Shown here piece by piece: positions 5,237-43,789 of a stretch of DNA of 64,000 nt (position 1 is its first letter; every line of letters begins with the position of its first letter). Origin of the DNA: Candidatus Omnitrophota bacterium (GTDB taxonomy: Bacteria; Omnitrophota; Gorgyraeia; Aquiviventales; Aquiviventaceae); the NCBI GenBank assembly GCA_016206685.1, contig JACQRB010000023.1, forward strand, positions 29,287-93,286, read 5' to 3'. The translations under genes and the position numbers were made by a program. Below the pieces are notes generated by a model. That model was not told the DNA's origin and did no database searches. It worked only from the letters and a program-made list of their open reading frames with translations.

Positions 5237-5251
5237 GCGGCGGTCACGCCG

Positions 5252-8666: not shown

Positions 8667-8673
<7 letters not shown>
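7822..8673 (-). CDS. HisF-like imidazole glycerol phosphate synthase cyclase subunit homologue (WbuZ-type, LPS/glycan amidotransfer)
   Basis: Internal start MLKTRLIPCILLKNGLIVRS...ELIYLDITRDG...IPVIACGGAGT matches the HisF N-terminus and the (beta/alpha)8 phosphate-binding motifs. The track ORF carries an approximately 35 aa spurious extension. Confidence 0.75.
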
Positions 8674-9289
<616 letters not shown>

Positions 9290-9293
<4 letters not shown>

Positions 9294-16466: not shown

Positions 16467-16467
16467 G

Positions 16468-29159: not shown

Positions 29160-30382
29160 GGTCGCACCTCTGCCGCGCGGGTGAGTTCGGTATACAGGCG
29201 GAGATACTGGCGCCGCCCGCGCTCCAGGGACAGGTGCTCGCGCGCGGCGCGGCGACACCGTGCCACCAGTTCGCGATCGCTCAGGAGGTTCAACAATTCG
29301 CGCGCCCCGTCGTCATACGAGATGGCGCTCAGATCATGCAGGACCACGCCCACGCGATCTCGAACGACCAGCTCCTCCAGATCTCCAACGCCGCGATTGA
29401 CGACCACCGGGATGCCGCTGGCTAAATATTCTCCGATCTTGGTCGGTGAGGAAAATTGTTTGGAGAGGGCCGGCGTGATCAGCGCCAACCCCACGTGCGC
29501 CGAAGCCAGCTGCTCGGGTACCTCTTCCGGCGCAGCCGATACCACGCGGGTCTGCGCCTCAAGTCCCGGAAATTGACGCACCGCCTGCCACGCCTGCGCA
29601 TGGTAGCGGGCGGGCGACACCACCAGAAAACGGCTGTGCGGTTGACGGGCTGCCACCGCCAGGACAAACCGCGCCATCTCCTCGAACAGATACCATGTGC
29701 CAATCGAGCCGACGTACCCCAGCACCAGCGCCCCCGCCATGCCGTCCCTCCGCTGGGCCGCCTGCGCGAACCGCTCCACGTCCACGCAACACGGAATCAC
29801 CGATGGCGAGAGGCGCGGTGGCAGCCGCCACCAGGGATCCTGACGGAGCGTCTCGACTGCCCGCCGGGTCAAGACGACCATCGCATCCGCTTGGTGGATG
29901 AGGAGGCGTTCGACGACCCTGGCCACTCGATGGATCCATGAACCGCGCCGCCACAGGCCGCCGTCCACGTACTCCTGGGACACCAACCCCCGAAGATCCA
30001 GCACCCATCGGCAGCCGGTCAGTCGGGCCACCGGCGCGGCGACCAGGGCGGAGATGGTGCCGCGGGCATGGAGGAGCGTGATGCGGTGGCGCCGGACGAG
30101 CCGTGTCGCCACCACCCATCCCACCACCACGTCATACGCCGTCGAGAGCACGGCCGGCCGTTTATGATACCGCAGCGGATGCCACTGCAAGCCGTCGCGC
30201 GCAAGCTCCGCTCGCTGCCGCCGGCGGTACGTGCGCTCCGTCCGGTGCGGCGTCATCCGGCGCTCATAGGTCATCACATGCACCGCAACACCGTGCCGCG
30301 CCAGATCGCGCAGGTACGCCGCCCCTTGGGTGTGGAACAACGGATCGGTTGTCCCGTTATACGAGATGAAGAGGGTCTGCAT
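29156..30382 (-). CDS. GT4 (GT-B fold) glycosyltransferase
   Basis: The internal start is MQTLFISYNGTTDPL. The C-terminal TKIGEYLASGIPVVVNRGVGDLEELV matches the Glycos_transf_1 motif. Confidence 0.7.
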   Translation of the reverse strand: MQTLFISYNGTTDPLFHTQGAAYLRDLARHGVAVHVMTYERRMTPHRTERTYRRRQRAELARDGLQWHPLRYHKRPAVLSTAYDVVVGWVVATRLVRRHRITLLHARGTISALVAAPVARLTGCRWVLDLRGLVSQEYVDGGLWRRGSWIHRVARVVERLLIHQADAMVVLTRRAVETLRQDPWWRLPPRLSPSVIPCCVDVERFAQAAQRRDGMAGALVLGYVGSIGTWYLFEEMARFVLAVAARQPHSRFLVVSPARYHAQAWQAVRQFPGLEAQTRVVSAAPEEVPEQLASAHVGLALITPALSKQFSSPTKIGEYLASGIPVVVNRGVGDLEELVVRDRVGVVLHDLSAISYDDGARELLNLLSDRELVARCRRAAREHLSLERGRRQYLRLYTELTRAAEVRP

Positions 30383-31754
30383 GCCGAGCGCGCCGTTCCC
30401 ACACTGCCGCCAGGCCGACGGCACTCAACGTCAGATAGAGCGGGATGAACATGCCGCGGTGGCGAAAAGCCACGCCCATGTTGCCGGTGCTCATGGCGAA
30501 CATGGTGGTGAGAACGGCCAGCGGAACCACGAGGACCATGACCGCCCCGCACCGTCGCCACAGTAGATGGACCGTTCCCAGGAGCGCGCATCCGACCAAC
30601 ACGTACCACAGGCACACTTCCGGCATCGCCACGGCCTGCAGCGCGCTGGTGACGCGCCAGGGAACCGGGCTGAAGAGAAAATAGCCCCATCCCATCAGCA
30701 GCGTCCCGACGATCTGCCGCGGGCGAAAGGTGGAGGCGCGGCCCACATCGTTGACCGGATAGACGACGTCATCATAAATCCGATACGCCGACCCGCCGGA
30801 GAGCTGATGCCCCCACTGCCGGCTCACCAGCTCATCCATGACGCGATTCACGACCTTGGGCCAGTACTGAGTCGGCGAGGTGCGGGCGCTGAGCGGGAGC
30901 CCCCCGAGGACCCCCATGACCAGCAGCGCCGCGATGCCGATCATCACCGGGGTGGGACGCGACACGATCAGCGCGATCCCCCACCCGATCGCCAGGGAGG
31001 CCACCACGGGCATCAGCAGCAGCGGCCGGGCCGTCCAGATCAACCCCAGCGCGCCCAGGCCGTGCAGCAGAGAGGACGGCCGCACACCCCGTTGGAGCCC
31101 ACGCACCACGGTCCAGCAGACCCACGCCAGTCCCAGCGCCGTTGGAGTTTCCTTCAGGTTGGTCACGGACCACAACAGCGTTGACGGAAACAACGCGACC
31201 AGCCACGCCGAGATCTTGGCCGACCGCAGACCCCCCAACGCCTTGGCGGTCGCATAGGCCACCAGCGGGAGCAGCGCTCCGAGAAGACCGTTGAAGAGCT
31301 TCACCGCAAATTGGCTGAAGCCGAAGAGATAATGAAACCAGATATACGGGTAGACCCACCAGGTGGTCCGATCTTCGAGCATCCCCTGATCCAGCGCCCC
31401 GCGATCAAAACGCCCCTCCCAGGTCTGGGCGATGATCCAGCCGCGCAGGGACAGATACGCGCTGTCCCCGGAGATATCGAACGACTCCTGGCCGTACATC
31501 AAATAGCCTTTACCCTGATACATCGCCCACAAGTGCAGCGCGGCGCCGATCAGGAAGCGCGCCGCGAGCGCCACCGCGTAGAGCCGGACGATAAACACCC
31601 GATCCGCTTCCGGAGCCCATCGCCGGATCAGCCATCCGACGGCGATCAGCACCATGATCATCGTCGCCAGGCCCGGCGACCACATGACCAGCAGGGCGAG
31701 AGCCGCCCCGCACCCCGCCATCATGAGGCAGGTCATTGAATGAAGACGGTTCAT
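30357..31754 (-). CDS. polytopic membrane protein, putative GT-C-type glycosyltransferase or glycan polymerase/ligase
   Basis: The internal start MNRLHSMTCLMMAGCG at 31754 is ATGA-coupled to the upstream MTase. It has more than 10 hydrophobic segments, and an acidic loop (FDISGDSAY) follows TM1-2. The track ORF has an approximately 107 aa spurious extension. Confidence 0.45.
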   Translation of the reverse strand: MNRLHSMTCLMMAGCGAALALLVMWSPGLATMIMVLIAVGWLIRRWAPEADRVFIVRLYAVALAARFLIGAALHLWAMYQGKGYLMYGQESFDISGDSAYLSLRGWIIAQTWEGRFDRGALDQGMLEDRTTWWVYPYIWFHYLFGFSQFAVKLFNGLLGALLPLVAYATAKALGGLRSAKISAWLVALFPSTLLWSVTNLKETPTALGLAWVCWTVVRGLQRGVRPSSLLHGLGALGLIWTARPLLLMPVVASLAIGWGIALIVSRPTPVMIGIAALLVMGVLGGLPLSARTSPTQYWPKVVNRVMDELVSRQWGHQLSGGSAYRIYDDVVYPVNDVGRASTFRPRQIVGTLLMGWGYFLFSPVPWRVTSALQAVAMPEVCLWYVLVGCALLGTVHLLWRRCGAVMVLVVPLAVLTTMFAMSTGNMGVAFRHRGMFIPLYLTLSAVGLAAVWERRARHADPLHLV

Positions 31755-32503
31755 GGTCGTCGCGCGACACAGAACACGGATAATCCGAACGGCACGCTGC
31801 GCACCCACCAGGGCAGCGCCGTCTCGGCTCGAAGCACACCACGCAAGACGGTGTTGAGCCCCATCGGCACCGGAGCGACGTCGGAGACGGCATGCGCCGC
31901 CTCGACGCAGCGCCGTTTCAGCGCGCGCATCAGCGCCAGCAATGGAAACAACAACTGATTCCGGTAGTAACTGGCACGAACCCTTAAGCCAGCCTCTTGT
32001 AAGAGCGCGGTGACCTCCCGGCGTGTGTAGCGCCGCCGGGTCCAGATGGCCGCATCGTGCTCGCTGCGCAGCCATTCGAATGCCGGCACATGGACGACCA
32101 GCAACCCGCCCGGCTTCAGAACACGCGCCATTTCAGCGACCGCCCGCCGATCGTCCACGCGTTGGTGATAGAGGACGTCAATACTGCTCACCACGTCAAA
32201 GGACCGGTCCTGAAACGGCAGCGCGGTGACGGAGCCCTGCAGTAAGTTGGGAAGGCGTCTGGCGCGGGCTAACCGCAGCCCCTCCCACGTGATCTCGACG
32301 CCGACCTGCCACCACGACGCCACCCCCAGGTGCCCCAGCAATCCGCCGGTGCCGCAGCCGGCGTCAAGCCAACGGCTGGCGGACGCCTGCGGGGATTGGG
32401 ACGCGAACCGGTTGACGGCGCGCAGGATCTCGTGGCGCAGCCCGACGTACCACCAGTGTCGGTCCTCCACGGAGAACATCACCTCGTACTCGCGGGGATT
32501 CAT
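31751..32503 (-). CDS. class I SAM-dependent methyltransferase
   Basis: Motif I is WLDAGCGTGGL. VLKPGGLLVV is Methyltransf_11-like. Confidence 0.7.
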   Translation of the reverse strand: MNPREYEVMFSVEDRHWWYVGLRHEILRAVNRFASQSPQASASRWLDAGCGTGGLLGHLGVASWWQVGVEITWEGLRLARARRLPNLLQGSVTALPFQDRSFDVVSSIDVLYHQRVDDRRAVAEMARVLKPGGLLVVHVPAFEWLRSEHDAAIWTRRRYTRREVTALLQEAGLRVRASYYRNQLLFPLLALMRALKRRCVEAAHAVSDVAPVPMGLNTVLRGVLRAETALPWWVRSVPFGLSVFCVARRP

Positions 32504-32509
32504 CGCACC

Positions 32510-33607
32510 TCACCGCGAGGACGCGGCCAGCCTGCGGCGGGCGTGCGGCCGGGGACCGGCCGATCCCTCCTCCCCGTTCCAGTAATAGGCGGGCCCGTAG
32601 GCTTCATAATACGCCAGCGTCTTGGTCAGCCCCTGGCGCAGGGACGTCGTGTGCCGCCACGGAAAGTGGGTGCGAAACAGGCGGTCATCGGCGTAATAAT
32701 CGCCGATGTCGATCGCCTTGCGGTCGGGAGGAAATGGGACCACCCGGTAGCTGCCCCTGCCGTAGATGTCCACGAGCAGGCGGGCGAGGTCCTTGAGGCT
32801 CACCGGACTGTCGCCGCCCACATTGAAGATCCGGCCGTTGCACGCCTCGTGGGTCGCCGCGATCAGGCACGCCTCCACGACATCACCGACATAGGCGAAG
32901 TCCCGCCGCTGGGCGCCGTCCCCGTAGACCTGGATCGGCTGGCCCTCGATGAGCTGGCGGATCCACCAGCCCAGGAATGTCTGCCGGGCGTCCCGCACCC
33001 GCATGCGCGGGCCGTACGTATTGGTCAGGCGCAGGGCGCAGGCGCGGATGCCATAGACGTTGTTATAGACGATGTGATACCACTCCCCCGCCGCCTTGTT
33101 GATGCCGTTGACGTCTACGGGGCGCACCAAATGCCGCTCATCCACCGGGAGGTAGTCCGGCACCCCGTAGACCTGGCGCGTGCTGGCATACACGATCTTG
33201 ACGCGGGCATTGTGCTTGCGGCAGGTTTCCAGGATCGACAGCTGCGCCCGGCAATTGATCTCCAGATCCGTGTACGGATCGCTCATTGAATCCAAGTGGC
33301 TGGTCTGCCCCGCGAGGTTGAAGAGGTAATCCTGACCGCGCACCAGGTGGCGGAGGCTGTAGACATCCCGCACGTCGGCGATGTTGACCGTCACGCGCGA
33401 TTCAATGCCGCGGAGGTTAAAGAGGTTGCCCCCGTATTCCGGGATGAGCGAGTCAACGACGAGCACCGTGGCGCCCAAGCCGACGAGCCGGTGCGCCAGC
33501 GTCGAGCCGATGAAGCCCAGCCCGCCGGTGATGATGACCTTGCGCCCGGCAAACGCTGAGTGCAGCGACGGCTCAGCCGCCTGGCGCCGGGGTCGGACGG
33601 CGGTCAT
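32510..33607 (-). CDS. NAD-dependent epimerase/dehydratase (UDP-glucuronate decarboxylase / NDP-sugar dehydratase-like extended SDR)
   Basis: KVIITGGLGFIGS is the Rossmann motif. The core is SDR-like. It has an ATGA overlap at 33604-33607. Confidence 0.7.
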   Translation of the reverse strand: MTAVRPRRQAAEPSLHSAFAGRKVIITGGLGFIGSTLAHRLVGLGATVLVVDSLIPEYGGNLFNLRGIESRVTVNIADVRDVYSLRHLVRGQDYLFNLAGQTSHLDSMSDPYTDLEINCRAQLSILETCRKHNARVKIVYASTRQVYGVPDYLPVDERHLVRPVDVNGINKAAGEWYHIVYNNVYGIRACALRLTNTYGPRMRVRDARQTFLGWWIRQLIEGQPIQVYGDGAQRRDFAYVGDVVEACLIAATHEACNGRIFNVGGDSPVSLKDLARLLVDIYGRGSYRVVPFPPDRKAIDIGDYYADDRLFRTHFPWRHTTSLRQGLTKTLAYYEAYGPAYYWNGEEGSAGPRPHARRRLAASSR

Positions 33608-34413
33608 GTCGTCTCCTTGGGCGCCGCGCCCGCCGCCGCGTCGGCCAAGGCGGTCTGGCGCCGGTGGCGGGGGGACGATTCACCCTGGTGGGCGATGCCG
33701 ACCGGCGTGCGGCACCGCACGATCAGTTCCCACCACAGCCGCAGGATATTCAAGCCCGTCGCGGCCAGGCGGCGGATGTTGAAGAATTGAGACCGGCCGT
33801 GCTGGCGGTGGTAATGGTGCACCGGGAAATCCGCAAACCGGTAGCCGGCCAGCTCGAGCTTCTTGACCAGCTCCAGGCAGATCATCCCCGAGGTGTGGTG
33901 CAGGTGGATGGTACCGACCGCCCGCCGACGGATCAGGCGGAAGTCGCAATCGACATCGCGCACATGGAAGTTGAAGAGCAGCCGCATGAGCCGCAGGTAC
34001 ACCTTGCCGATGATGATCCGGTGCCAGGGGTCGGAGCGGGCGATCTTGTAGCCGTTGACGACATCGACCCCGTCCTGCATCACCGGTAGCAGCCGGCGCA
34101 GCTCAAACACATCGTACTGCCCGTCGCCATCGGTGTAGAAGACGAGATCCTTGGTGGCGTGCGCGAAACCGGATTGCAGCGCCGCCCCATAGCCGCGGTT
34201 CTTCTCGTGCCGGATGATGCGCAGCCTCGGATATTTCTTCTGCAGCCCCTCCAGTAGTTCCCGGCTGCTGTCGGTGCTGCCATCATCCACCACCAGGATT
34301 TCGTAGTCCGGCGTGTATTCGGCGGCCACAACGTCGGCCTCGGCCACGAGGCTGCCGATCGTGCCGGAATCGTTGAAGCATGGAAAGAAAATCGTCAGGC
34401 TGGGTCGAGGCAT
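33604..34413 (-). CDS. GT2 glycosyltransferase (DPM1-like polyprenol-phosphate sugar synthase, soluble form)
   Basis: LTIFFPCFNDSGTIGS...ILVVDDGSTDSS...TDGDGQYD are GT2 motifs. Confidence 0.75.
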   Translation of the reverse strand: MPRPSLTIFFPCFNDSGTIGSLVAEADVVAAEYTPDYEILVVDDGSTDSSRELLEGLQKKYPRLRIIRHEKNRGYGAALQSGFAHATKDLVFYTDGDGQYDVFELRRLLPVMQDGVDVVNGYKIARSDPWHRIIIGKVYLRLMRLLFNFHVRDVDCDFRLIRRRAVGTIHLHHTSGMICLELVKKLELAGYRFADFPVHHYHRQHGRSQFFNIRRLAATGLNILRLWWELIVRCRTPVGIAHQGESSPRHRRQTALADAAAGAAPKETT

Positions 34414-34422
34414 GCGGGAGTC

Positions 34423-35391
34423 CTACGGAGCCAGGGTCCTGGACGAGGTCCACGGCTCCGTGGCCAGGTCATCCAACTGCGTCTGCTCATGATCGATCAC
34501 AAACACGGGACGACCCACTAAATTCTTGTAGGTGCGGGCCAGGTAGAGGCTGATCATGGACACCGACATCAGGATGAAGTAGAACCCCAGCGCCACGATC
34601 AATCCCACCGCCTGCTCCGCCCCCAGGCGGCCTCCCCAGACCGCCGCCGGCGCGGCCACGGCCAGCGCGATCGCCGAGTAGAGCACGAATCGCAGCGGAA
34701 ACGTCGAGCTGGACAGTATGCCGCCGATCGCAAACCGGGTCATGCGCATCAGGTTGTAATGCGACACGCCCCGCAGCCGCTTGCCCCGGCGGTACGGAAT
34801 GCCGATGCGCTTGAAGCCCACGTAGCCGATCTCCGCCCGCAGGAACGGGTACGTCGTCCGCGGCGCCAGGACGGCCTGGCGCACCGGCCGGGTGAACATC
34901 GCGAGCTCCGCCATCCACTCCACCATCTCGGCGTCGGCGATCCGGCGGATGATAGCGTAGAACAGCTTGCGGTAAAACGTGATGAGCGACGGCTCGTCGC
35001 GATTGGACCGGATGCCGTAGGCCACGGCGTACCCTTCCCGGATGGCCTGATAGAAGTCGGCCAGCAGCTCGGGCGGATCCTCGCCGTCCACGTCGATGAT
35101 GGCGTAGAGATCGCTCTCCACCTGTGACAGCCCCGCCACGAGGACCGAATGATAGCCGAAATTCCTGGACAGGGAGATGACCTTCACCCGCTCATCGGAC
35201 GCCCGCAGGTCCATGATCGCCTCCAACGAGCCGTCAGTGCTGCCGTCGTTGACGAAGACCAGGGCCCAGGCGTCCACGCCGGCCATCGCGTCCAGCACCG
35301 GCTTGGCCCGCTCATAGAACAAGGGGATGTTCTCCCGCTCGTTGTAGACCGGAACGATGACCGCCAGCTTCATCGCGTCGGATCGCCTCAC
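34423..35391 (-). CDS. GT2 polyprenyl-phosphate sugar glycosyltransferase (ArnC/GtrB-like) with C-terminal TM helices
   Basis: KLAVIVPVYNEREN...VFVNDGSTDGS...IDVDGEDPP are GT2 motifs, with a C-terminal hydrophobic pair. Confidence 0.75.
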   Translation of the reverse strand: MRRSDAMKLAVIVPVYNERENIPLFYERAKPVLDAMAGVDAWALVFVNDGSTDGSLEAIMDLRASDERVKVISLSRNFGYHSVLVAGLSQVESDLYAIIDVDGEDPPELLADFYQAIREGYAVAYGIRSNRDEPSLITFYRKLFYAIIRRIADAEMVEWMAELAMFTRPVRQAVLAPRTTYPFLRAEIGYVGFKRIGIPYRRGKRLRGVSHYNLMRMTRFAIGGILSSSTFPLRFVLYSAIALAVAAPAAVWGGRLGAEQAVGLIVALGFYFILMSVSMISLYLARTYKNLVGRPVFVIDHEQTQLDDLATEPWTSSRTLAP

Positions 35392-36332
35392 CAGATAAAA
35401 CGGTCGCGGTAATATTCCACGATCGCCTTGATTTCGTCATCGAAGCGCCGCGCGTTCTTCCATCCGAGCCGGCGCAGCCGCGTGTCGTCAAGCGAATAGC
35501 GCACGTCTTCCCCCATGCGCACGTAGTTGAATTGCACGTGGAGATTGAGCTTCACGCGCTTGCCGAAATAGCAGCGCAGGACTTTCTCGATGACCTCGCG
35601 GTTGGTGGCTTCGTAGTTCCCTGAGACGTTGTAGACGCGGTTGCGCTGGCCGCGCTCGAGGATGTGAAAGATGGCCGCCGCGGTGTCTTCAGCGTGCAGC
35701 CAATTGCGGACGTACAGCCCTTTGCCGTGCAGCGGAATCTTCTTGCGCAGCGACAGATACTTCACGGCCTTGGGGATGAGCTTCTCCGGATACTGGCCGA
35801 TCCCATAGTTGTTGGTGGGACGGATGATCAGGTAGGGCACATTGTGGGTGCGGTGCCATCCCAGAATCAGCATATCCGCGGAGGCCTTGCTGGCCGAGTA
35901 CGGGTTGCTGGGATGCAGCGGGTGCTCCTCGGTGTGCTTGCCGTCGAGCACGTCGCCGTACACCTCATCGGTGCTGACCTGCACCAGCAGCGGCATCTCG
36001 TAGTTCCGTTTGCCGCGGATCAGCTCCAGCAGGTTTTCCACGCCCATGATGTTCGCCCAGGAAAACCGGCTGCTGTCCACGATGCTGTTGTCCACATGGG
36101 TCTCGGCGGCGAAGTTGAAGACGGCGTCCACGTCGTAGAGGTGGTCCATCGTCACGATGTCGGCCTCGGTGAACTTGAACGACGCGGACTGGCGGAACTC
36201 ATCCAGCAGCTCGGGCCGGGCGGCGTAGGTCATCGTGTCGACGCCCCACACCTGCCATCCGCGCTGCAGGCAGGCCCGCGTGAAATGCGACCCCATGAAC
36301 CCGAGGCACCCGGTGACGCACACGACTCTCAT
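35388..36332 (-). CDS. rmlB-like: dTDP-glucose 4,6-dehydratase-like (RmlB-type extended SDR)
   Basis: MRVVCVTGCLGFMGSHF and PYSASKASADMLIL (RmlB YxxxK context), with VSTDEVYG. It has ATGA overlaps at both ends. Confidence 0.7.
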   Translation of the reverse strand: MRVVCVTGCLGFMGSHFTRACLQRGWQVWGVDTMTYAARPELLDEFRQSASFKFTEADIVTMDHLYDVDAVFNFAAETHVDNSIVDSSRFSWANIMGVENLLELIRGKRNYEMPLLVQVSTDEVYGDVLDGKHTEEHPLHPSNPYSASKASADMLILGWHRTHNVPYLIIRPTNNYGIGQYPEKLIPKAVKYLSLRKKIPLHGKGLYVRNWLHAEDTAAAIFHILERGQRNRVYNVSGNYEATNREVIEKVLRCYFGKRVKLNLHVQFNYVRMGEDVRYSLDDTRLRRLGWKNARRFDDEIKAIVEYYRDRFIW

Positions 36333-38323
36333 GGCCGACTGGCCTTTGTTGAGGGGGTGATGGATGATTCCGGCTCGATCACTTCGACGTGGGGAACCGG
36401 CACGATGAAGCCGTTAGTGTACCGCGCCGCGCGGCACCGCGCCATGATTTCCTGCCGGAAATTCCAGGCCAGCAGGAGCAGGTAGTCGACGCGGGCCTGT
36501 GCGAGGGCGTCGATGCCGGCGATCCGCATACGGGCGCCGGGCGTGTACCAGCCCCACTTCTTGGGATTGTCATCCACCGCCACCGGCACCATCTCGCGCG
36601 ACAGCTCGAAATAATTCATCAGGGTGTTGCCCTTGGCGCTGGCGCCGTAGGCCCAGATGGTTTTGCCCTCCTGGCGCAGGCGGCGCAGGACGCGCGTCAG
36701 GTCCTCCTTGCTCCGGCGCACCCGCTGGGCGAACGCCTCGTAGGGGGCCCGCCGCGTGATGCCGAAGGCCTGCTCGCGGGCCAGGTACTCGCCCACGGAG
36801 GGAGCCACCGGGTAATCCCGGCGGCGCGCCAGGCTCACGCGAATGGTTCCGCCGTGGAGCTGGCCGAAAAAGTCCACGTCAATGGCCTCCATGTCGTGCG
36901 CCTGCGCCAGGCGCTGCAGCGCGTGCACGCTCATGTACGAGAGGTGCTCGTGATAGGCGGTGTCGAACTCATTCTCTTCAATGAAGGGGATCACGTACGG
37001 GCATTCGATCACGCACAGCCCCCGGGGCGCCAGGCAGCGCTCGACCCCGACCAGAAACTCATGCACGTCGTCAACGTGGGCGATGACGTTCGTCGCCGTG
37101 ATGATCTTCGGCGGCGCGAAGCGGCTCATGATGTCTTTGGCCGTCGCCTGCGACCAGTAGGTGCACAGGGTGCGGATGCCGGAGGCGTTGGCTTCCGCGG
37201 CGAGATTCTCGGCCGGATCCACGCCGACGACGTTCATCCCGCGCTCCTGGAACCGCGCCAGCAGGCAGCCGTCATTGCTGGCGATGTCCAGCGCCCAGTC
37301 GCCCCGCGATGCCTGCGTGCGCCGGATGGCGGACTCGGCCAGCTCCGCGCAGTGGGAGCGAAAGGTTGCCGTCGTGGAGCTGACGTAGAGGTAATGGCGG
37401 AACATCAAATCGGGATTGACCACTTTCGTCAATTGCGACAGGCCGCACGTCTCGCACAGCTGAATGGCCAGCTCTTCCCTAAATTCGGGCTGCGGCAGGT
37501 CCTCCTCCCGCAGGTACGAATTGGCCAGCGGCGTGACGCCCAGGTCCAGGTACGTCCACAGCGACGAGGAGCCGCAGATGCGGCAGGCGGTCCTGGACAC
37601 CGACGGCGGCGCGTCGGTCCGCATGACCGTCTGAAGCTTGGTGGTGTCCAGCGAGCTGTCGCCGGGCAGCAGGTACGGCAGCTTGAAGTCCTTTCTGGTG
37701 CACGCCTCGACCGATGGATTCTGCTCGGCCTTGATGATCTCGTAGACCGAACGCTTCTGCTTGGCGCCGACGTTGATGATGCCCCGCAGGGTGGTCTTCA
37801 CCGCCAGGTGATGCACGGCCTTGGCCGCCTCCGCGACCGGAAGGCGCGAGGTGTACTGGTCGGTGCACGCCTTGGCAAACGGGATCGCCGCGTAGAACGA
37901 CGTGCGGATGATCAGCGTGTTGTCATGCTGCTGCGCGGCCATCTCGCCGCCCAGCTTGGATTCGGCGTACCGGTTGATCGGCCAGAGGACCGATTCCTCC
38001 GAATAGTCGCCCCGCTCTCCCGGATAGACGTAATCGGTGGACAGGTAGACCAGCCGCACGTCGTGCCGGAGGCACCACAGCGCCACGTTGGCGGTGCCGA
38101 TGATGTTGGCTTGCAGGTAGTCCGCCGGCGGGGCGTCGTGGTGCGTCTCGGCCGCCGCGTGGATGATGACATCGGGCCGGGCCGCCCCGCAGTACCGCTC
38201 AACGCTCTCATAGCGTGAGACGTCCAACGCGGACTTGGGCGGCGCGTCGATCGAGGGATCCAGCGCCACCAGCGCCTTTGCCAGGTTCCCTTGCCCTCCC
38301 GTCACCAGAATCTTTGGAGCCAT
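36329..38323 (-). CDS. bifunctional fusion: dTDP-4-dehydrorhamnose reductase-like (RmlD) N-terminal domain + NDP-hexose C-methyltransferase (TylC3/NovU-family) C-terminal domain
   Basis: The N-terminal MAPKILVTGGQGNLA...YAESK is RmlD-like. It is followed by CRICGSS...C-x-x-C (Methyltransf_13 zinc module), an MTase core (ALDIASNDG) and the C-methyltransferase C-terminal domain (YLLLLAWNFRQEI...FIVPVP). Confidence 0.7.
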   Translation of the reverse strand: MAPKILVTGGQGNLAKALVALDPSIDAPPKSALDVSRYESVERYCGAARPDVIIHAAAETHHDAPPADYLQANIIGTANVALWCLRHDVRLVYLSTDYVYPGERGDYSEESVLWPINRYAESKLGGEMAAQQHDNTLIIRTSFYAAIPFAKACTDQYTSRLPVAEAAKAVHHLAVKTTLRGIINVGAKQKRSVYEIIKAEQNPSVEACTRKDFKLPYLLPGDSSLDTTKLQTVMRTDAPPSVSRTACRICGSSSLWTYLDLGVTPLANSYLREEDLPQPEFREELAIQLCETCGLSQLTKVVNPDLMFRHYLYVSSTTATFRSHCAELAESAIRRTQASRGDWALDIASNDGCLLARFQERGMNVVGVDPAENLAAEANASGIRTLCTYWSQATAKDIMSRFAPPKIITATNVIAHVDDVHEFLVGVERCLAPRGLCVIECPYVIPFIEENEFDTAYHEHLSYMSVHALQRLAQAHDMEAIDVDFFGQLHGGTIRVSLARRRDYPVAPSVGEYLAREQAFGITRRAPYEAFAQRVRRSKEDLTRVLRRLRQEGKTIWAYGASAKGNTLMNYFELSREMVPVAVDDNPKKWGWYTPGARMRIAGIDALAQARVDYLLLLAWNFRQEIMARCRAARYTNGFIVPVPHVEVIEPESSITPSTKASRP

Positions 38324-38328
38324 GATCG

Positions 38329-38751
38329 CTATTTCGCCGGCCGCATCCAATCGAAGCCCATCGCCTCGATTGACATGCGTTCCTCGTCCTTCGGGTTGTA
38401 CTTGTTCGTAATCCAGTACAGGACGATCGCCGGCTTATCGGTGAAGTTGTAATGGCCGTGCCACATTCCCCGCGGAACGAACAGCGCTCCGTCCTTGGCG
38501 CTGCGCTCGGACGAATAGACCCATTCCACCGTGCCGCCCTGCGAGGCCGGCTTGTCGCACAGCCCGAATTTCAGCGCCCCCTTGATGCAGAGCTGGTAGT
38601 CGTCCTGCTGCTGATGGCGGTGCCAGGCCGACATGGCGCCCGGATAAATGACGACCACGTTGATGTCCCCCTGCGGAATTGGAAAGACGTCGCAATACCG
38701 CACCCCGCGGTCGTCTTCATGGAATCGAAGCGGATGTCGCCGAATCTGCAT
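38329..38751 (-). CDS. cupin-fold NDP-4-keto-6-deoxyhexose epimerase/ketoisomerase (RmlC/FdtA/WxcM-like)
   Basis: 140 aa small cupin. HRHQQQDDYQLCIKG has an H-x-H metal/active-site pair followed by a beta-barrel pattern. The size fits FdtA-type 3,4-ketoisomerases better than full-length RmlC. Confidence 0.5.
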   Translation of the reverse strand: MQIRRHPLRFHEDDRGVRYCDVFPIPQGDINVVVIYPGAMSAWHRHQQQDDYQLCIKGALKFGLCDKPASQGGTVEWVYSSERSAKDGALFVPRGMWHGHYNFTDKPAIVLYWITNKYNPKDEERMSIEAMGFDWMRPAK

Positions 38752-38769
38752 GGCCTCCTCGCTGTCTGC

Positions 38770-40608
38770 TCAGCCCGCTGACGAGGACCTCAGAGAGGCC
38801 GCCGGAGCGGACTTGCGTCGATAGATCGTGACCACAGGCCCCTGATGCCGTTGACGCCAGCCATTCACGACCGGCACGCGCTGAAGCCGCGCCACATCAC
38901 ATGTGTACATCACGGGAAATTCCTCATGAAAGCGCACGCCGGGATCGAAACGCGCCACCTCGATGTAGTCGCGTGCCAGGTAGTCCCGAAGCGCCAGGCG
39001 CGCTTGAAGAAACCCTGGCTTATGACAGGGCGGTGCTTCAATCCGGCGCGGCGACTCCTGGTCAAACAGATCCAGATCAAAATAGCCGCTCGTCACGACG
39101 TACTCAGGCCGCATCCGATCCAGCGCGTCCGGCGCAGCCGTGAAGACCTTGGTCAGCGCGAAGGCCGCGGCTGGCGGGTGGGCCTGTGCCAGCGCCAAAC
39201 GCATCTGCGCCAGCCGTCCAAGGCCGCCGCGTGCCTCGACCTGCATGAGTTCCTGCGCTAAGACGTCAGCCCGCCCTGGCAAGGTTGGTCCCAGCCACAT
39301 GTCCGCATAGCGGGCTCCCTCGACGACGATGTGCGCTCCCGACGGGACATTCGCCTGCACCCACGCACGGGCCAGCGTCCGGGTATCAGGACGCCGGGTG
39401 AGGGCAATCAGCCGGACGTCGTCAACCACGCTCGGCCAGAGGCACAGGCCCGCCAACCCCACCAAGCATACGCGGCGCGCCGGCGTCGGCGAGGAGAGGA
39501 ATGGCGCGGCGACCGTGACGAATCCGACAGCCGCGGTCAGCGCCACCACGGGGACCATCAACGCCAAATAGGTGGGCGACCCCAGGTAGGGCGACAGAAA
39601 GACCAGCAACGCGACCGGATAGGCCAGGAGAAAGACGCCGAGGCGGCGGTGCCGCCACAGCAGCACCGCGCTGCCAACCACCGCCAGGAGCGCCACCGGA
39701 GCGCCCACGACGCCAGGCAGATGCCACAACAGGCGCGTCACGGTCGGCGGAATGGGCTGGTGGAACTCCGCAAACCCGAAGGCCAGATCATGCACGCCGG
39801 CCAGCAGCAAGCGCCGGTCGAGCAGCAGCGAGGGCATCAACGCCACAAACGCCGCCAGGGTCCCTCCCAAGACGACGAGACTGCGCTGAGCCACCACCCG
39901 CCATCGCGCCGAGGGCCGCCCCGTTCCAGACGGCGCGGACCACCAGACCGCCAGCAGCACCGGCGCAAGACCGAGGACCGCCGTATATTTGAAGGCGCTG
40001 GCGGCTCCAATCCAGACCCCCGCCCAGAGCGCGAGCGACAGGGGTTTCATGCGACCGCCGGCCAATCCAGCCAGTTGAGCGGCGCACCCCAGAGCCGCCA
40101 ACACGCCGAACAGCGCGGGTAAGTCCTCTTTGAATCGCATCACCATGGTCAGCGGCAAGACGGACCAGCCGGTCCAGGCCGCGGCGATCAGCCCCACGAC
40201 GGGGGAACGGAGCCGGCAGCCGAGCCACCACGTCATCACGATCACTCCAAGACCTGAGACGAGAACGGTCAGGCGGCCGAGCAGAAAAAAGATCGTGGGA
40301 TCCCGCAGATACAGCCAGGCGAGATCTATCGGCGCCTGCATAGAGCCGAGGGCATGCTGCACGAGATAGAGGAGGCCGAATTCTACGACGAGCAGAATAG
40401 GAAGCCCCATGCCGTGCCGCAAGCCGAACGGCTGCAAGACGCCGCTGCCCATGCGGAGAGCGGTTTCAATGAAATTGACTTCGTCGCCGCCATGAAGGCG
40501 ATCCACCTGCGGTAATGCGCCGGCCAGATACAACGCCAACGCGACGATCAGGATGACGCCTAACCAGACCCGTTGGGCCCATCGGCTCGCGTGCTCGATT
40601 CCGGTCAT
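38770..40608 (-). CDS. GT-C fold membrane glycosyltransferase (GT39/ArnT-like), paralog 1
   Basis: 612 aa. It has approximately 11 N-terminal TM segments and a soluble C-terminal domain. It is paralogous to 40605..42356 and 53183..54859 (shared FTDPTLFFL / DPTIFFLLGR block). Confidence 0.7.
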   Translation of the reverse strand: MTGIEHASRWAQRVWLGVILIVALALYLAGALPQVDRLHGGDEVNFIETALRMGSGVLQPFGLRHGMGLPILLVVEFGLLYLVQHALGSMQAPIDLAWLYLRDPTIFFLLGRLTVLVSGLGVIVMTWWLGCRLRSPVVGLIAAAWTGWSVLPLTMVMRFKEDLPALFGVLAALGCAAQLAGLAGGRMKPLSLALWAGVWIGAASAFKYTAVLGLAPVLLAVWWSAPSGTGRPSARWRVVAQRSLVVLGGTLAAFVALMPSLLLDRRLLLAGVHDLAFGFAEFHQPIPPTVTRLLWHLPGVVGAPVALLAVVGSAVLLWRHRRLGVFLLAYPVALLVFLSPYLGSPTYLALMVPVVALTAAVGFVTVAAPFLSSPTPARRVCLVGLAGLCLWPSVVDDVRLIALTRRPDTRTLARAWVQANVPSGAHIVVEGARYADMWLGPTLPGRADVLAQELMQVEARGGLGRLAQMRLALAQAHPPAAAFALTKVFTAAPDALDRMRPEYVVTSGYFDLDLFDQESPRRIEAPPCHKPGFLQARLALRDYLARDYIEVARFDPGVRFHEEFPVMYTCDVARLQRVPVVNGWRQRHQGPVVTIYRRKSAPAASLRSSSAG

Positions 40609-42356
40609 GGCCGGGCCGCCAACTCATAAATCTGCAGGTACTCTTCTCTGGCGCGCATGAGCGGCACGATATCCACCCATGGTCCACGGAATTCCTGCAG
40701 GAGCCGGCAGTGTTGCCGAACCTGCTCGATGTAGCGCACCTGCGAGGGAAAATTGTGCGGCTCGGCCAGGTACTCGTCAACGCTGCTCTCCAGGATGAAA
40801 TACCGCACGCCCTCCTGCGCCTGGCCGGCGAAATCGAAATCTTCTGGATCGTACTCCCCCATGGAGGGAAACCGCAGGTAGATCACGTCGTAGGTCGCAG
40901 CAAACGCGGACTGGTGGCGCAGCAGGCGCCGGAGCCGCTCGCCGCGGCCCATCCGCTTGCGCTCGATCTCCTCCAGCTGCCGCTGGATGGACACCGCATT
41001 GGGCACGATCGGCAGGTCCGCCATCGTGACGATTTTTGTCCCGGCCGGCAGCGTCGCTTCGATCCAGGTTTTCGCCTGCGTGGCCGGCGGCAGTTGAGCC
41101 GCCCGGCCCAGGAAGGCCAGGCTCTTGGCCAGGGGCGCTGCGAACAGCACGGCGAAGACCGCGGTCACCGCGGCCCCGCGCCACCACGAGGGCCGCAGCG
41201 CGCGGACGACTCCCATGAGCCAATCCACGCCGAGCAGGATCATGAACGGAGCCACCTGGACGAAATACCGGGAGTTGATCAATTGCCACCGGCTCATGTA
41301 CACCAGGATGAACCCGATCATGCCCAGGAAGAGCAGGTCGCGGCGGCTGCGGCGGATCAGCGCATGGAGCACGCCGGCGATGCCCAGCACCGTCAGAGGC
41401 ATGCTCCACCCAAACGGCAGTGCGTCCATGAAGATGAACAACCAGCCGGGCTTCGTGATGCGGGAGCCCGGGGCGGTCAGGGCGCCGTACGCCACGGTGT
41501 CATACAGGAACTTCCAGTCCCGACTGAAACGCCGGATATCAACGATGGTGTACCAAGCCCCCAGCCCATAAGCCAGCCCCATGCAGGCCAGGGCCCCCCA
41601 GAGCCTGGGGTCCTGCCACCACCGCCGGGACTGCGGGCCGCGTGGCGCCAGGATGTGGGCGGTCAGCAGCGGAAACAGCATCAGCGCGCCGTCGTACTTG
41701 GCGGCCGTCGCCAACCCGCCGAGGAACCCGGCGGCCAAGTACTCGCGCCACCCGCCCCCGTCCTGAAAAATCCGCACCACGCACCATACCGACGCCATGA
41801 AGAGACAGAGCATGAACACGGTCGGCACCGCGTAGTGCGCCCAGCGGACCAGCTCGGGAGCACACGCCATCAGGGCCGTGGCAATCAGCGCGGTGCGCTC
41901 GTCAAACAGCCGGCGGGCGATCCGATGGAACAGCACGACGCTGCCCATCGCCATCAGCCACATGAAGGCGCGCGCAATCAGGTAGAACAGCGTGGGGTCG
42001 GTAAAATACAGTTGCTCAAACGCGGCCAGCGAGGGGATCCAGCCGAGCGCCCGTCCGATGACGTAGGCCGCCCCGTAGAAAACGAACAAGACATACGACA
42101 ATAACGGCGGATGGATGAAGAAATGCGGGTTCAGGTCGCCCGTGCCGCACTTCAGCGCCAGTTGGATGTGCTCCTGCTCGATGCCGAGCCGGCTGAACGG
42201 CAAATCTGCGGTCATGCCGTAGCCGAACAGCACGCCGGCGATGCCGAGCACGACCCAGCTCCAGGCGCGCAGGCGCGCAGACGATGCCACACTCGACGGT
42301 TGTCTCCTCACGGGCAGATCCTCTATGTTCTCGCCAGGATGACCAGCCCCAGACAA
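40605..42356 (-). CDS. GT-C fold membrane glycosyltransferase (GT39/ArnT-like), paralog 2
   Basis: DLPFSRLGIEQEHIQLALKCGTGDLNPHFFIHPP...FTDPTLFYLIAR...AAKYDG is closely similar to 53183..54859. It has an ATGA overlap with paralog 1. Confidence 0.75.
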   Translation of the reverse strand: MSGAGHPGENIEDLPVRRQPSSVASSARLRAWSWVVLGIAGVLFGYGMTADLPFSRLGIEQEHIQLALKCGTGDLNPHFFIHPPLLSYVLFVFYGAAYVIGRALGWIPSLAAFEQLYFTDPTLFYLIARAFMWLMAMGSVVLFHRIARRLFDERTALIATALMACAPELVRWAHYAVPTVFMLCLFMASVWCVVRIFQDGGGWREYLAAGFLGGLATAAKYDGALMLFPLLTAHILAPRGPQSRRWWQDPRLWGALACMGLAYGLGAWYTIVDIRRFSRDWKFLYDTVAYGALTAPGSRITKPGWLFIFMDALPFGWSMPLTVLGIAGVLHALIRRSRRDLLFLGMIGFILVYMSRWQLINSRYFVQVAPFMILLGVDWLMGVVRALRPSWWRGAAVTAVFAVLFAAPLAKSLAFLGRAAQLPPATQAKTWIEATLPAGTKIVTMADLPIVPNAVSIQRQLEEIERKRMGRGERLRRLLRHQSAFAATYDVIYLRFPSMGEYDPEDFDFAGQAQEGVRYFILESSVDEYLAEPHNFPSQVRYIEQVRQHCRLLQEFRGPWVDIVPLMRAREEYLQIYELAARP

Positions 42357-42724
42357 ATGACCGCCACACCCAGATAGCGCAGGGGCGGGACGGCTTCATG
42401 CAGAATGACCTGTGAGGCGAGGGTGACCAAGACGAAGCCGAGCGCCCACCAGGGGTAGGCATAGCTCAGCTCCAGACGGGACAGAACCGCCAGCCAGAGA
42501 AAGACGCTCACCGCATAAGCGGCCATCGCCGTCAGGATCAAGGGATTCGTCGCCAAGGACCACACGGTACGCGGAATGGTCCGGAGCTCAAGGCGCATCA
42601 CTCCGAAGGCATTCATCGCAGTTTTTAACAGCAGTTCCCCCACGACCGCAATCACGACTGCGACAAGCATGAGGAGAAGGGAGGTCGTCGTCATGCCGTT
42701 GCGACTGATGAGAATGTTCGTCAT
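42323..42724 (-). CDS. small 4-TM EamA/SMR-like transporter subunit (ArnE/ArnF-like polyprenol-phosphate-sugar flippase component)
   Basis: 133 aa with four hydrophobic helices. It sits immediately upstream of and overlapping the GT-C genes. Confidence 0.55.
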   Translation of the reverse strand: MTNILISRNGMTTTSLLLMLVAVVIAVVGELLLKTAMNAFGVMRLELRTIPRTVWSLATNPLILTAMAAYAVSVFLWLAVLSRLELSYAYPWWALGFVLVTLASQVILHEAVPPLRYLGVAVICLGLVILART

Positions 42725-43749
42725 GAGATCGCTCGGGGGCGGCGATGGACCGGAGGCGCTGGTCGGCCGGCTGACGTCCGTTTCGATTCGCTCGTGACCC
42801 GCTCAAGATCGGCGTCAACCAGAAGCCGAACGAGCTCTGGGAAGGCCGTCGTCGGCTCCCAGCCAAGGCGCGCCCGGGCTTTTGAGGCATCGCCAACCGA
42901 GACGAAGGTGTCGGCGGGACGATAGAGCGCCGGATCAACGTCCACGTAGTCTTCCCAACGCAGCCCCTTGTAGGAAAACGCCTCCTGAAGGAACTCACGA
43001 ATGCTGTGGGTCTGGCCCGTCGCAACGACGTAGTCGCCGGCTTCCGGCTGCTGGAGCATGCGCCACATCGCCTCGACGTACTCCTTCGCGTAGCCCCAGT
43101 CGCGCTTCACCTCGAGGTTGCCCAAACTGAGTTTCTGCTGGCGACCGGCCAGGATGTTCGCGAGCCCCCAGGTGATCTTGCGCGTCACAAACGAGAGGCC
43201 CCGTCGAGGGGACTCATGGTTAAAACAAATCCCGCTGCACGCAAAAATGCCATAGGTCGTGCGCGCATGCTGCGTAAACCAGTGGGCGAACAGTTTCGCC
43301 GCCCCATACGGATTCTGCGGATGACACGGCGTGGTCTCCTGCTGGGGCGACTCCGTCGTATTGCCGAACATCTCGCTGCTGGAGGCTTGATAGAACTTCG
43401 CCGGGATTTTGTTGACGCGAATCGCCTCCAGCAGCCGCACCGCCCCTACGGCCGTCACGTTGACGGTATGCTCCGGCTGCTCGAAGCTGAGCGACACGAC
43501 GCTCTGCGCGGCGAGGTTATAGACCTCATCGGGCCGGATGGTCCGGAGCAATTGGGTGAGCACGTTGCCGTCCGTCAGGTCTCCGAGATGCAACACCAGC
43601 CGATCCGAGGGCTTGAAGGGACTCGCTTCAAGCGACGCGGGCCGCCGGATGAGCCCGTGGACTTCATAGCCCTTCTCCAGGAGCAGCTCCGCCAAGTAGG
43701 AGCCGTCCTGCCCCGTGATCCCTGTAATCAGTGCACGGCGGGTCGTCAT
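42721..43749 (-). CDS. gmd: GDP-mannose 4,6-dehydratase (Gmd), copy 1
   Basis: The internal start [32 protein letters not shown] is a near-invariant Gmd N-terminus. ASSSEMFG and NPYGAAK are also present. Confidence 0.85.
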   Translation of the reverse strand: MTTRRALITGITGQDGSYLAELLLEKGYEVHGLIRRPASLEASPFKPSDRLVLHLGDLTDGNVLTQLLRTIRPDEVYNLAAQSVVSLSFEQPEHTVNVTAVGAVRLLEAIRVNKIPAKFYQASSSEMFGNTTESPQQETTPCHPQNPYGAAKLFAHWFTQHARTTYGIFACSGICFNHESPRRGLSFVTRKITWGLANILAGRQQKLSLGNLEVKRDWGYAKEYVEAMWRMLQQPEAGDYVVATGQTHSIREFLQEAFSYKGLRWEDYVDVDPALYRPADTFVSVGDASKARARLGWEPTTAFPELVRLLVDADLERVTSESKRTSAGRPAPPVHRRPRAIS

Positions 43750-43789
43750 GATGCACCCCGGCCGACGGCGATCCGATGCACGCCCACCA

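Follow-up and report, generated by a model that had tools for sequence, protein, structure and literature searches.

A conserved cassette with a fused short reductase and C-methyltransferase, predicted to make a branched-chain 6-deoxyhexose in an uncultured Omnitrophica bacterium

A 64,000-nucleotide stretch of contig JACQRB010000023.1 from a Candidatus Omnitrophota bacterium (hereafter the window) contains three consecutive genes that encode a small cupin, a reductase fused to a C-methyltransferase, and a nucleoside diphosphate (NDP)-hexose 4,6-dehydratase. Judged by their sequences, these genes form a conserved cassette that carries four enzyme activities, two of them in one polypeptide. A sequence-only reading of the window had proposed that this set of enzymes, with a C-methyltransferase of the TylC3 family, makes a C-methyl-branched 6-deoxyhexose for a surface glycan, and the domains, motifs, and folds described below support that proposal. 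The fusion itself is a recurrent, conserved, yet uncharacterised arrangement built from well-known enzyme families. Domain identities, catalytic residues, folds, and the conservation of both the fusion and the cassette were computed directly. The explanation as a whole, in which the four activities would turn NDP-glucose into an NDP-C-methyl-6-deoxyhexose that is then delivered by way of a lipid carrier, is one that we hold to be rather likely.

The cassette and its fused enzyme

The window has a G+C content of 63%, and every candidate gene of the cassette region lies on its minus strand. The three open reading frames (ORFs) were found where the sequence-only reading had placed them, with the cupin gene (140 amino acids) at 38329-38751, the fusion gene (664 amino acids) at 36329-38323, and the RmlB-like dehydratase gene (314 amino acids) at 35388-36332. 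Within the fusion, a short N-terminal domain recognised by Pfam, motifs, and Foldseek as an RmlD-like short-chain dehydrogenase/reductase (SDR; residues 1 to 236, 37616-38323) is joined through a linker of lower model confidence and constant length (residues 237 to 245, 37589-37615) to a C-terminal domain of the TylC3/TcaB9/MtmC family, recognised by Pfam, PDB alignments, and Foldseek (residues 246 to 664, 36332-37588); the stop codon occupies 36329-36331. The genes had been described as coupled by ATGA overlaps, which holds for the junction of fusion and dehydratase but not for that of cupin and fusion, where a TAG stop is followed by a 5-nt spacer and the ATG of the fusion. The dehydratase gene in turn meets a family 2 glycosyltransferase gene (GT2, 34423-35391) in a GTGA overlap. 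Translation of the fusion is assigned to the ATG at 38323 (MAPKILVTGG) and not to the upstream TTG at 38350, the same start being found in 26 of 26 aligned homologues. The Pfam scan that the sequence-only reading had called for returned RmlD_sub_bind, Methyltransf_13, Methyltransf_23, and Methyltransf_14 for this protein.

On its sequence and modelled structure, the C-terminal half is a TylC3/TcaB9-type NDP-hexose C-methyltransferase, with every sequence and structure test of the TcaB9 family pointing the same way. The zinc-binding Methyltransf_13 domain (PF08421) covers residues 256 to 317 (6.9e-19, 68 bits against a cut-off of 31), followed by Methyltransf_23 (PF13489) at residues 350 to 489 (5.2e-13, 49.5 bits) and Methyltransf_14 (PF08484) at residues 498 to 653 (4.6e-46, 157 bits against a cut-off of 23.5). 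This half aligns end to end with MtmC (282 bits), TcaB9 (245 bits), and KijD1 (223 bits) at 31 to 37% identity. In an AlphaFold model of the fusion, which has a mean predicted local distance difference test (pLDDT) score of 86 and a predicted template modelling (TM) score (pTM) of 0.73, it superimposes on the same three enzymes with target-normalised TM-scores (TMt) of 0.93 to 0.94 in Foldseek. Residue conservation was judged on 27 fused proteins sharing 55 to 66% identity. Among these, the zinc cysteines C247, C250, C290, and C293 (CxxC...CxxC), which align with cysteines of TcaB9 and MtmC, are invariant. In the S-adenosylmethionine (SAM) motif D346-I-A-S-N-D-G352, S349-N-D-G352 is invariant and D346 nearly so. 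The residues Y311, H416, Y457, E459, and H460, also invariant, correspond in a HMMER alignment to Y76, H181, Y222, E224, and H225 of TcaB9, which are the mutagenesis residues named in PDB entry titles. The zinc and SAM motifs on which the sequence-only reading had staked the methyltransferase assignment are thus both present and invariant, together with the catalytic residues of TcaB9.

The N-terminal domain is probably an NAD(P)H-dependent 4-ketoreductase, as indicated by sequence comparison and by the model. RmlD_sub_bind (PF04321) matches residues 13 to 152 (2.5e-30, 106 bits against a cut-off of 27), with only positions 2 to 150 of the 287 in the profile aligned, and the matches to RmlD proteins in the PDB span residues 2 to 150. 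RmlD is the best match of this half both in sequence (3sc6, 63 bits, 27% identity) and in structure, where Foldseek aligned 264 columns of 3sc6 with a TMt of 0.69 and a root-mean-square deviation of 4.2. The motifs TGGxG, STDYV(Y/F)xG, YxxSKxxGE, and IRTS(F/W) align with those of RmlD, and T8, G9, G10, G12, S95, D97, Y98, Y119, and K123 are invariant in the fused proteins. The score against TIGR01214 (rmlD), 106 bits, lies below the equivalog cut-off of 224, and on these comparisons short RmlD-like SDR is a better name for the domain than RmlD.

A search of 1.84 billion representatives placed the reductase in a large family of standalone RmlD-like proteins of 230 to 250 amino acids, with 16,016 matches at E ≤ 1e-3 and 44 at E ≤ 1e-30. 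The short module, of about 235 amino acids, is also found fused to C-methyltransferases (P0172, P0176, P0196, and P0190), to a GT2 (P0233), to a GFO/IDH/MocA oxidoreductase (P0231), to RmlC (P0203 and P0210), and to a DegT aminotransferase (P0284). Because members of the family fuse to several sugar-nucleotide enzymes, the short reductase can be regarded as a mobile terminal-reductase module, and the methyltransferase fusion appears as one among several fusions of this promiscuous partner. In rhamnose synthesis RmlC acts before RmlD, and the occurrence of the same short module fused to RmlC therefore supports a role in 4-ketoreduction. Fusions of RmlC and RmlD have been reported in 69 genomes (bioRxiv 10.1101/854612).

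Distribution of the fusion and of the cassette

The fused architecture is uninterrupted in at least 85 independent protein clusters. Among the 120 best database clusters, 85 (P0002-P0086, 629 to 694 amino acids) contain all four domains with at least 94% query cover and 55 to 66% identity. The window protein is 100% identical to a deposited protein from a metagenome-assembled genome (MAG) of a Candidatus Omnitrophica bacterium, where it is annotated as "sugar nucleotide-binding protein" on a 109-kb contig. When GTDB species genomes were scanned, fused genes of 57 to 59% identity appeared in Bacteroidota, Ignavibacteriota, and Chitinophagales and more distant fused forms of 36 to 40% identity in Myxococcota, Pedobacter, and Woeseia MAGs; when the contigs of these last three were read directly, each carried an uninterrupted fused ORF, of 640 to 683 amino acids. 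Of 27 aligned fused proteins, 26 have a linker of the same length, free of stops and changes of frame, although the model is less confident around it (pLDDT 69 to 77 at residues ~210 to 240). In-frame third-position GC stays between 0.80 and 0.96 in each 50-codon block over all 664 codons, domain boundary included. A sequencing, assembly, or frameshift artefact that joined two separate genes is consequently rejected on the strength of the independent homologues, the constant linker, and the even codon bias, and we regard it as extremely improbable, even though reductase and methyltransferase are adjacent separate genes in some Verrucomicrobia, Akkermansia, and Acidobacteria MAGs and unfused methyltransferases of 55 to 64% identity are common. 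The artefact had been named as the outcome that would undo the sequence-only reading, and the intact fusions of several phyla speak against it.

That reading had also called the fusion unusual. This is fair relative to characterised enzymes and overstated otherwise, as the architecture recurs in metagenomes and has already been annotated by the Joint Genome Institute (JGI), whose name for several fused clusters is [quoted passage not shown]. Given the many fused clusters in several phyla, natural rarity of the fusion was rejected too. A literature search found no paper on an RmlD::C-methyltransferase fusion, which is weak evidence since most subscription-journal papers lay outside the search. 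In a neighbor-joining tree of the methyltransferase domains, built without bootstrap and with only MtmC and TcaB9, taken from PDB alignments, as characterised references, fused and unfused proteins are intermixed. Rough as this tree is, the interleaving suggests repeated fusion or fission of the two domains.

The neighbourhood of the fusion was compared by tblastn of five window proteins against 70 loci. The order cupin-fusion-dehydratase, with the same spacing and with the cupin directly upstream of the fusion, recurs in 11 other loci, where identities to the window proteins are 71 to 81% for the cupin, 51 to 60% for the reductase half, 60 to 67% for the methyltransferase half, and 71 to 81% for the dehydratase. 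Intact cassettes were seen in Ignavibacteriota, Bacteroidota, Chitinophagales, and groundwater MAGs, and in Ignavibacteriota and Bacteroidota they lie inside Wzx-type polysaccharide loci. One groundwater contig (L004) is syntenic on both sides, with a PMT_2 gene and a 639-amino acid membrane protein upstream and two GT2 genes and an SDR downstream; the 639-amino acid protein, with no Pfam match on record, takes the place that a 612-amino acid membrane protein (38770-40608) holds upstream of the cupin in the window. The PMT_2 gene and a small GT2 gene of L004 are likewise placed as in the window.

The dehydratase follows the methyltransferase in more than 30 loci at 64 to 81% identity. In a second configuration, present in Elusimicrobia, Nitrospira, and Bacteroidota, an unfused methyltransferase (55 to 64% identical) precedes the same dehydratase, often with a homologue of the GT2 at 34423-35391 added and a PMT_2 gene nearby. 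Such GT2 homologues, of 50 to 70% identity, come after the methyltransferase-dehydratase pair in groundwater and Elusimicrobia loci, and in the Elusimicrobia locus L028 a PMT_2 gene lies near the methyltransferase-dehydratase-GT2 unit.

The cupin, the dehydratase, and the proposed pathway

The cupin is probably a minimal NDP-4-keto-6-deoxyhexose epimerase acting at C5 and/or C3, on the evidence of its sequence and its model. Pfam assigns it to Cupin_2 and, narrowly, to dTDP_sugar_isom (PF00908; 29 bits against a cut-off of 27), whereas its score against TIGR01221 (RmlC) is 20.7 bits and below the cut-off of 155.75. There are weaker matches to FdtA (Pfam, 19.5 bits, below the cut-off) and to WbuC. 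The best Foldseek neighbours of the AlphaFold2 model (pLDDT 87) include RmlC, the C-terminal cupin domain of CapF, NovW, ChmJ, StrM, WbcA, FdtA, and QdtA; the query-normalised TM-scores (TMq) of the fold matches are 0.6 to 0.74 at 12 to 23% identity, and besides NDP-4-keto-sugar epimerases and ketoisomerases only a few unrelated engineered cupins appear. The small protein lacks the N-terminal strands of RmlC and covers full-length RmlC-type structures (~185 amino acids, dimeric fold) with a TMt of only 0.50 to 0.59. H44 and Y112, invariant in 20 homologues, fall on the catalytic H60 and Y130 of the 3-epimerase ChmJ in a HMMER alignment that is weak (E 0.007) and is supported by the fold match.

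The dehydratase matches GDP_Man_Dehyd/Epimerase in Pfam, and its best match in the PDB is 2hun from P. horikoshii (237 bits), annotated as a dTDP-glucose 4,6-dehydratase, with which the TDE (VSTDEVYGD) and YxxxK (YSASKASAD) signatures align identically or nearly so. From these assignments we infer the substrate nucleotide, the order of steps, where and with what stereochemistry methylation occurs, delivery by a lipid carrier, and any channelling between the fused activities. The nucleotide is, by family resemblance, most likely deoxythymidine diphosphate (dTDP), and it would be supplied by a nucleotidyltransferase encoded outside the window. The RmlB-like dehydratase would then convert NDP-glucose to NDP-4-keto-6-deoxyglucose; the operon around the cassette has no 2,3-dehydratase gene, so the substrate for methylation is probably a plain 6-deoxy-4-ketohexose. 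The TcaB9/MtmC-type domain of the fusion would remove a proton beside the 4-keto group and add a methyl group from SAM, most likely at C3 and possibly at C5, C3 being favoured because all characterised relatives of the methyltransferase that were compared are 3-C-methyltransferases. The minimal cupin would epimerise the remaining acidic centre by means of His44 and Tyr112, and the short RmlD-like domain of the fusion would reduce the 4-keto group with NAD(P)H. The GtrB/ArnC-like GT2 directly downstream then probably loads the finished sugar onto polyprenyl phosphate, after which it would be flipped, and the two GT-C enzymes encoded directly upstream would pass it to an acceptor in the periplasm or on the surface. 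In the synthesis of mycarose and epivancosamine, methylation is followed by 5-epimerisation and then by reduction. If this order applies here, the two fused activities would not be consecutive; a noviose-like order of 3-epimerisation, C5 methylation, and reduction would make them so. The channelled synthesis that the sequence-only reading had drawn from the fusion is accordingly no more than a possibility.

Several observations weigh against this pathway. The dehydratase, the reductase, and the cupin all score under the NCBI equivalog cut-offs for RmlB, RmlD, and RmlC, with the dehydratase at 300.7 bits against 365.1 for TIGR01181, and by sequence the three are "-like" members that have kept the motifs of their families while missing the cut-offs. 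A scan of 41 long ORFs and 6 short plus-strand ORFs found no RmlA-type nucleotidyltransferase in the 64-kb window, where the sole nucleotidyltransferase domain found is a cytidine monophosphate (CMP)-sugar-type fusion at 12419-15226; dTDP is for this reason only the likely nucleotide. The reductase domain, at ~236 amino acids, is about 50 residues shorter than RmlD (~285 to 300 amino acids, a two-lobed fold with a C-terminal substrate-binding lobe) and shows the lowest conservation in the cassette, with 51 to 60% identity against 60 to 81% elsewhere; model confidence is low in its loop 99-116. Five loci with an unfused methyltransferase (L017, L020, L028, L033, and L072) have no RmlD-like gene within 6 to 10 kb of it, and none adjoins it in a sixth (L071), so that the fused reductase may be dispensable or replaced in some lineages. 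One possibility, by analogy, is that 4-ketoreduction in such loci falls to a bifunctional methyltransferase like MtmC. In the cupin, the enolate-stabilising lysine of RmlC is replaced by an invariant Asp51, and the full classical pair of metal-cupin motifs is present and invariant (G38-x5-H44-x-H46-x4-D51-x6-G58 and G88-x4-P-x-G-x2-H98-x3-N102, by the classical motif definition), for which reasons its chemistry could differ from that of RmlC. Finally, the Wzx-type loci of Ignavibacteriota and Bacteroidota hold the cassette without a GtrB-like GT2, which makes the lipid-carrier route a property of this locus and not of the cassette.

Some of these points open the way to other readings. A noviose-like pathway would place the cupin first as a 3-epimerase (as NovW), followed by C5 methylation (as NovU) and then by the fused reductase, to give a 5-C-methyl-6-deoxyhexose. 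The four activities match NovT, NovW, NovU, and NovS of the novobiocin pathway, NovW is among the structural neighbours of the cupin, and a fusion would more naturally join consecutive steps. The comparison covered only the solved and closest characterised relatives, MtmC, TcaB9, and KijD1 at 31 to 37% identity, which are all 3-C-methyltransferases; we consider this order unlikely, if the strongest of the alternatives. The cupin could alternatively be a 3,4-ketoisomerase similar to FdtA and QdtA, or another metal-dependent enzyme, in which case the methyltransferase and the reductase would act on a 3-keto sugar and the product would be branched differently. The H44-x-H46 pair resembles His49/His51 of FdtA, mutants of which are among the fold matches; FdtA and QdtA themselves are matched in fold and, at ~135 amino acids, are near the cupin in size; and the weak FdtA and WbuC matches and the invariant metal motifs fit such a role. 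Against this, the dTDP_sugar_isom (RmlC) model outscores FdtA, the tyrosine of the epimerases (Y130 of ChmJ, here Y112) is invariant, and to our knowledge all characterised methyltransferases of the TylC3/TcaB9 family use 4-keto substrates. We give the ketoisomerase only a slight chance, and an epimerase remains the preferred assignment.

It is also conceivable, with similarly low probability, that the fusion's N-terminal domain is not the ketoreductase at all and serves as a nucleotide-binding, regulatory, or scaffolding module, much as the RmlD-like subunit MAT2B, which is among its PDB matches. Reduction would then be carried out by the methyltransferase domain or by another SDR, such as the one encoded at 32510-33607. 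The shortened reductase, least conserved in the cassette, and the unfused close relatives of the methyltransferase that occur without an adjacent RmlD-like gene are compatible with this idea, as is MtmC of mithramycin biosynthesis, the best PDB match, which is reported to be a bifunctional C-methyltransferase and 4-ketoreductase in one polypeptide. Yet TGGxG, the Ser/Thr-Asp-Tyr motif, and Y119xxxK123 are invariant across the 27 proteins, RmlD proteins are the best matches in sequence and structure, and the fusion of the short module to RmlC, aminotransferases, and other sugar-nucleotide enzymes is what would be expected of a working reductase. A reductase active on the 4-keto group therefore stays the favoured role for this domain.

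Known counterparts and the surrounding glycan island

The known C-methyl-branched deoxysugars come chiefly from actinomycete antibiotics and a few lipopolysaccharides (LPS). The methyltransferases TcaB9, KijD1, and MtmC, and also TylC3, EryBIII, and EvaC, begin with a zinc-binding domain, continue with a class I SAM domain, and end in a Methyltransf_14 domain, and the active-site residues of TcaB9, KijD1, and MtmC are all shared with the methyltransferase half of the window protein. Unlike the latter, they are standalone proteins of ~410 amino acids from actinomycete antibiotic clusters that act on 2-deoxy or 3-amino sugars, whereas the window fusion has gained an N-terminal reductase and belongs to a surface-glycan locus of an uncultured Omnitrophica bacterium. 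MtmC too combines C-methylation and 4-ketoreduction in one polypeptide, but its one methyltransferase-fold domain serves both reactions, with NADPH taking the place of SAM, while the fusion appends a separate SDR domain. The same set of activities is found in the pathways to noviose (NovT/NovW/NovU/NovS), in which the 4-ketoreductase is RmlD-like, mycarose (TylC3-TylK-TylC2), and epivancosamine (EvaC-EvaD-EvaE). There, all of the enzymes are separate and the cupins are full-length (~200 amino acids), in contrast to the 140-amino acid cupin and the 236-amino acid short reductase fused to a methyltransferase in the window. Fusion of a terminal 4-ketoreductase to an enzyme of its own pathway has its counterparts in the RmlC-RmlD fusions and in CapF, which joins an SDR reductase to a cupin C3-epimerase and whose cupin domain is a top match of the window cupin in sequence and structure; in the window, however, the partner of the reductase is the methyltransferase, and the cupin stays a separate gene.

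One parallel for the product is virenose, 6-deoxy-3-C-methyl-gulose, in the LPS of Coxiella burnetii, which is likewise a C-methyl-branched 6-deoxyhexose in a Gram-negative surface glycan. Coxiella encodes the TylCIII-like protein CBU0691, and the predicted requirements for virenose are a dehydratase, a methyltransferase like TylC3, and a 4-ketoreductase (PMC3539893). A route from GDP-mannose has also been proposed there. In that organism the methyltransferase is standalone and the reductase has not been confidently identified (PMC3539893).

Judged solely by gene order, the branched sugar is probably delivered at this locus via a polyprenyl-phosphate lipid carrier. A long minus-strand operon (32510-42724) surrounds the cassette, and its gene set, by analogy, is an Arn/Gtr/Pgf-type system in which a GT2 would load the sugar, a small protein would flip it, and a GT-C enzyme would transfer it. 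The GT2 at 34423-35391 resembles GtrB, ArnC, and PgfS (Glycos_transf_2, PF00535, 78.5 bits); its GT-A domain is followed by two C-terminal membrane helices, with hydrophobic segments at residues 231 to 254 and 256 to 285; on sequence, it is probably the polyprenyl-phosphate glycosyltransferase for the product sugar, its scores for PgfS (151 bits, cut-off 500) and ArnC (109 bits, cut-off 529) denoting similarity at the level of family only. Upstream, 40605-42356 encodes a PMT_2-type GT-C glycosyltransferase like ArnT or PMT (PF13231, 2.2e-16; PF02366, 5.9e-06) and overlaps the next gene by ATGA. The 612-amino acid polytopic membrane protein at 38770-40608 has no Pfam match; it appears to be a divergent GT-C paralogue by its similarity to the adjacent PMT_2 protein (24% identity over 470 amino acids, E 1e-14) and has ~10 or more hydrophobic segments. 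The protein encoded at 42323-42724 (133 amino acids, four hydrophobic segments) gives sub-threshold Pfam matches to the small multidrug resistance (SMR) family Multi_Drug_Res (E 0.007) and to EamA (E 0.009), and is a possible ArnE/F-like lipid-sugar flippase. At the other end of the operon, a small GT2 of the DPM1/PpgS/ArnC type with no membrane helix (33604-34413; Glycos_transf_2 2.3e-28; NCBIfam scores of 82 bits for ArnC, 52 bits for PpgS, and 51 bits for dolichyl-phosphate hexose transferase) is tied to the cassette by position alone, and is followed by the SDR at 32510-33607.

The operon is thus like the Arn, Gtr, and Pgf systems in holding a GT2 with C-terminal helices, PMT_2-type GT-Cs, and an SMR-like small protein, and unlike them in that its donor would be a C-methyl-branched 6-deoxyhexose and its NCBIfam scores are far under the equivalog cut-offs. 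A bolder proposal holds that the C-methyl-6-deoxyhexose is new to surface glycans, that in Omnitrophica, Elusimicrobia, and groundwater lineages polyprenyl phosphate carries it and dedicated GT-Cs attach it outside the cytoplasm, and that the cupin is a metal-assisted epimerase distinct from RmlC. We regard this as tentative and on balance doubtful. If true, an Arn/Gtr-type lipid-carrier route would for the first time be known to handle a branched-chain sugar, and such sugars would be ordinary constituents of uncultured bacterial envelopes instead of curiosities of antibiotic producers. In more general terms, branched-chain 6-deoxyhexoses are probably widespread in such envelopes, and the cassette offers a compact and widespread genetic signature for predicting them in uncultured phyla, among them Omnitrophica, Ignavibacteriota, Bacteroidota, and relatives of Elusimicrobia and Nitrospira. 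The fused enzyme could also serve glyco-engineering as a two-step biocatalyst. The chemistry is predictable from known families, and the conceptual gain is modest.

Taken as a whole, the window (1-64000) forms a single glycan-biosynthesis island; its genes lie almost all on the minus strand, and modules of a small GT2 and a GT-C are repeated in it. Its four PMT_2-type GT-C genes lie at 30357-32075, 40605-42356, 53183-54859, and 62077-63567, besides the divergent paralogue already mentioned, and two GT87 genes lie at 49891-51201 and 51152-52444. Also present are a Wzx flippase (58712-60214), an ABC exporter (2268-4094), and three DegT aminotransferases. About 10 kb from the cassette, a second TylC3-family C-methyltransferase (Methyltransf_13/23/14; 427 amino acids, 47610-48893, minus) stands alone; it is 33% identical to the methyltransferase domain of the fusion and scores 219 bits against MtmC. 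Like the GtrB/ArnC-like GT2 and the GT-C enzymes, it had been overlooked in the sequence-only reading. Beside it are a GT2 (46810-47613), a UDP-glucose/GDP-mannose dehydrogenase-like gene (44842-46203), a GFO/IDH/MocA oxidoreductase (43790-44845), and a GDP-mannose 4,6-dehydratase (42721-43827), and another GDP-mannose dehydratase lies at 56538-57557. A further C-branched sugar, possibly linked to GDP, may thus be a product of the island.

Other genes of the window point to a pathway for a modified nonulosonic acid. A 935-amino acid protein (12419-15226, minus) combines a CMP-sugar-type cytidylyltransferase with two GNAT acetyltransferase domains and adjoins a NeuB-type nonulosonic acid synthase (15429-16508, minus); near this pair are an AsnB-like amidotransferase (10448-12415) and a radical SAM/SPASM protein (6732-7895). 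Three minus-strand ORFs with high third-position GC are harder to place: 19580-21601 and 4091-5236 (673 and 381 amino acids) have no Pfam match even at E ≤ 1, and 9290-10447 (385 amino acids) has no significant Pfam match, with only a hit at 0.05. A 398-kb metagenome contig (L071) has three separate TylC3-family C-methyltransferase genes in one locus (2049-12253) and shares the accessory genes of the window, namely the AsnB-like, radical SAM/SPASM, and NeuB-cytidylyltransferase genes and a Trm112-fused methyltransferase, which suggests a shared, heavily methylated type of glycan in unrelated uncultured bacteria.

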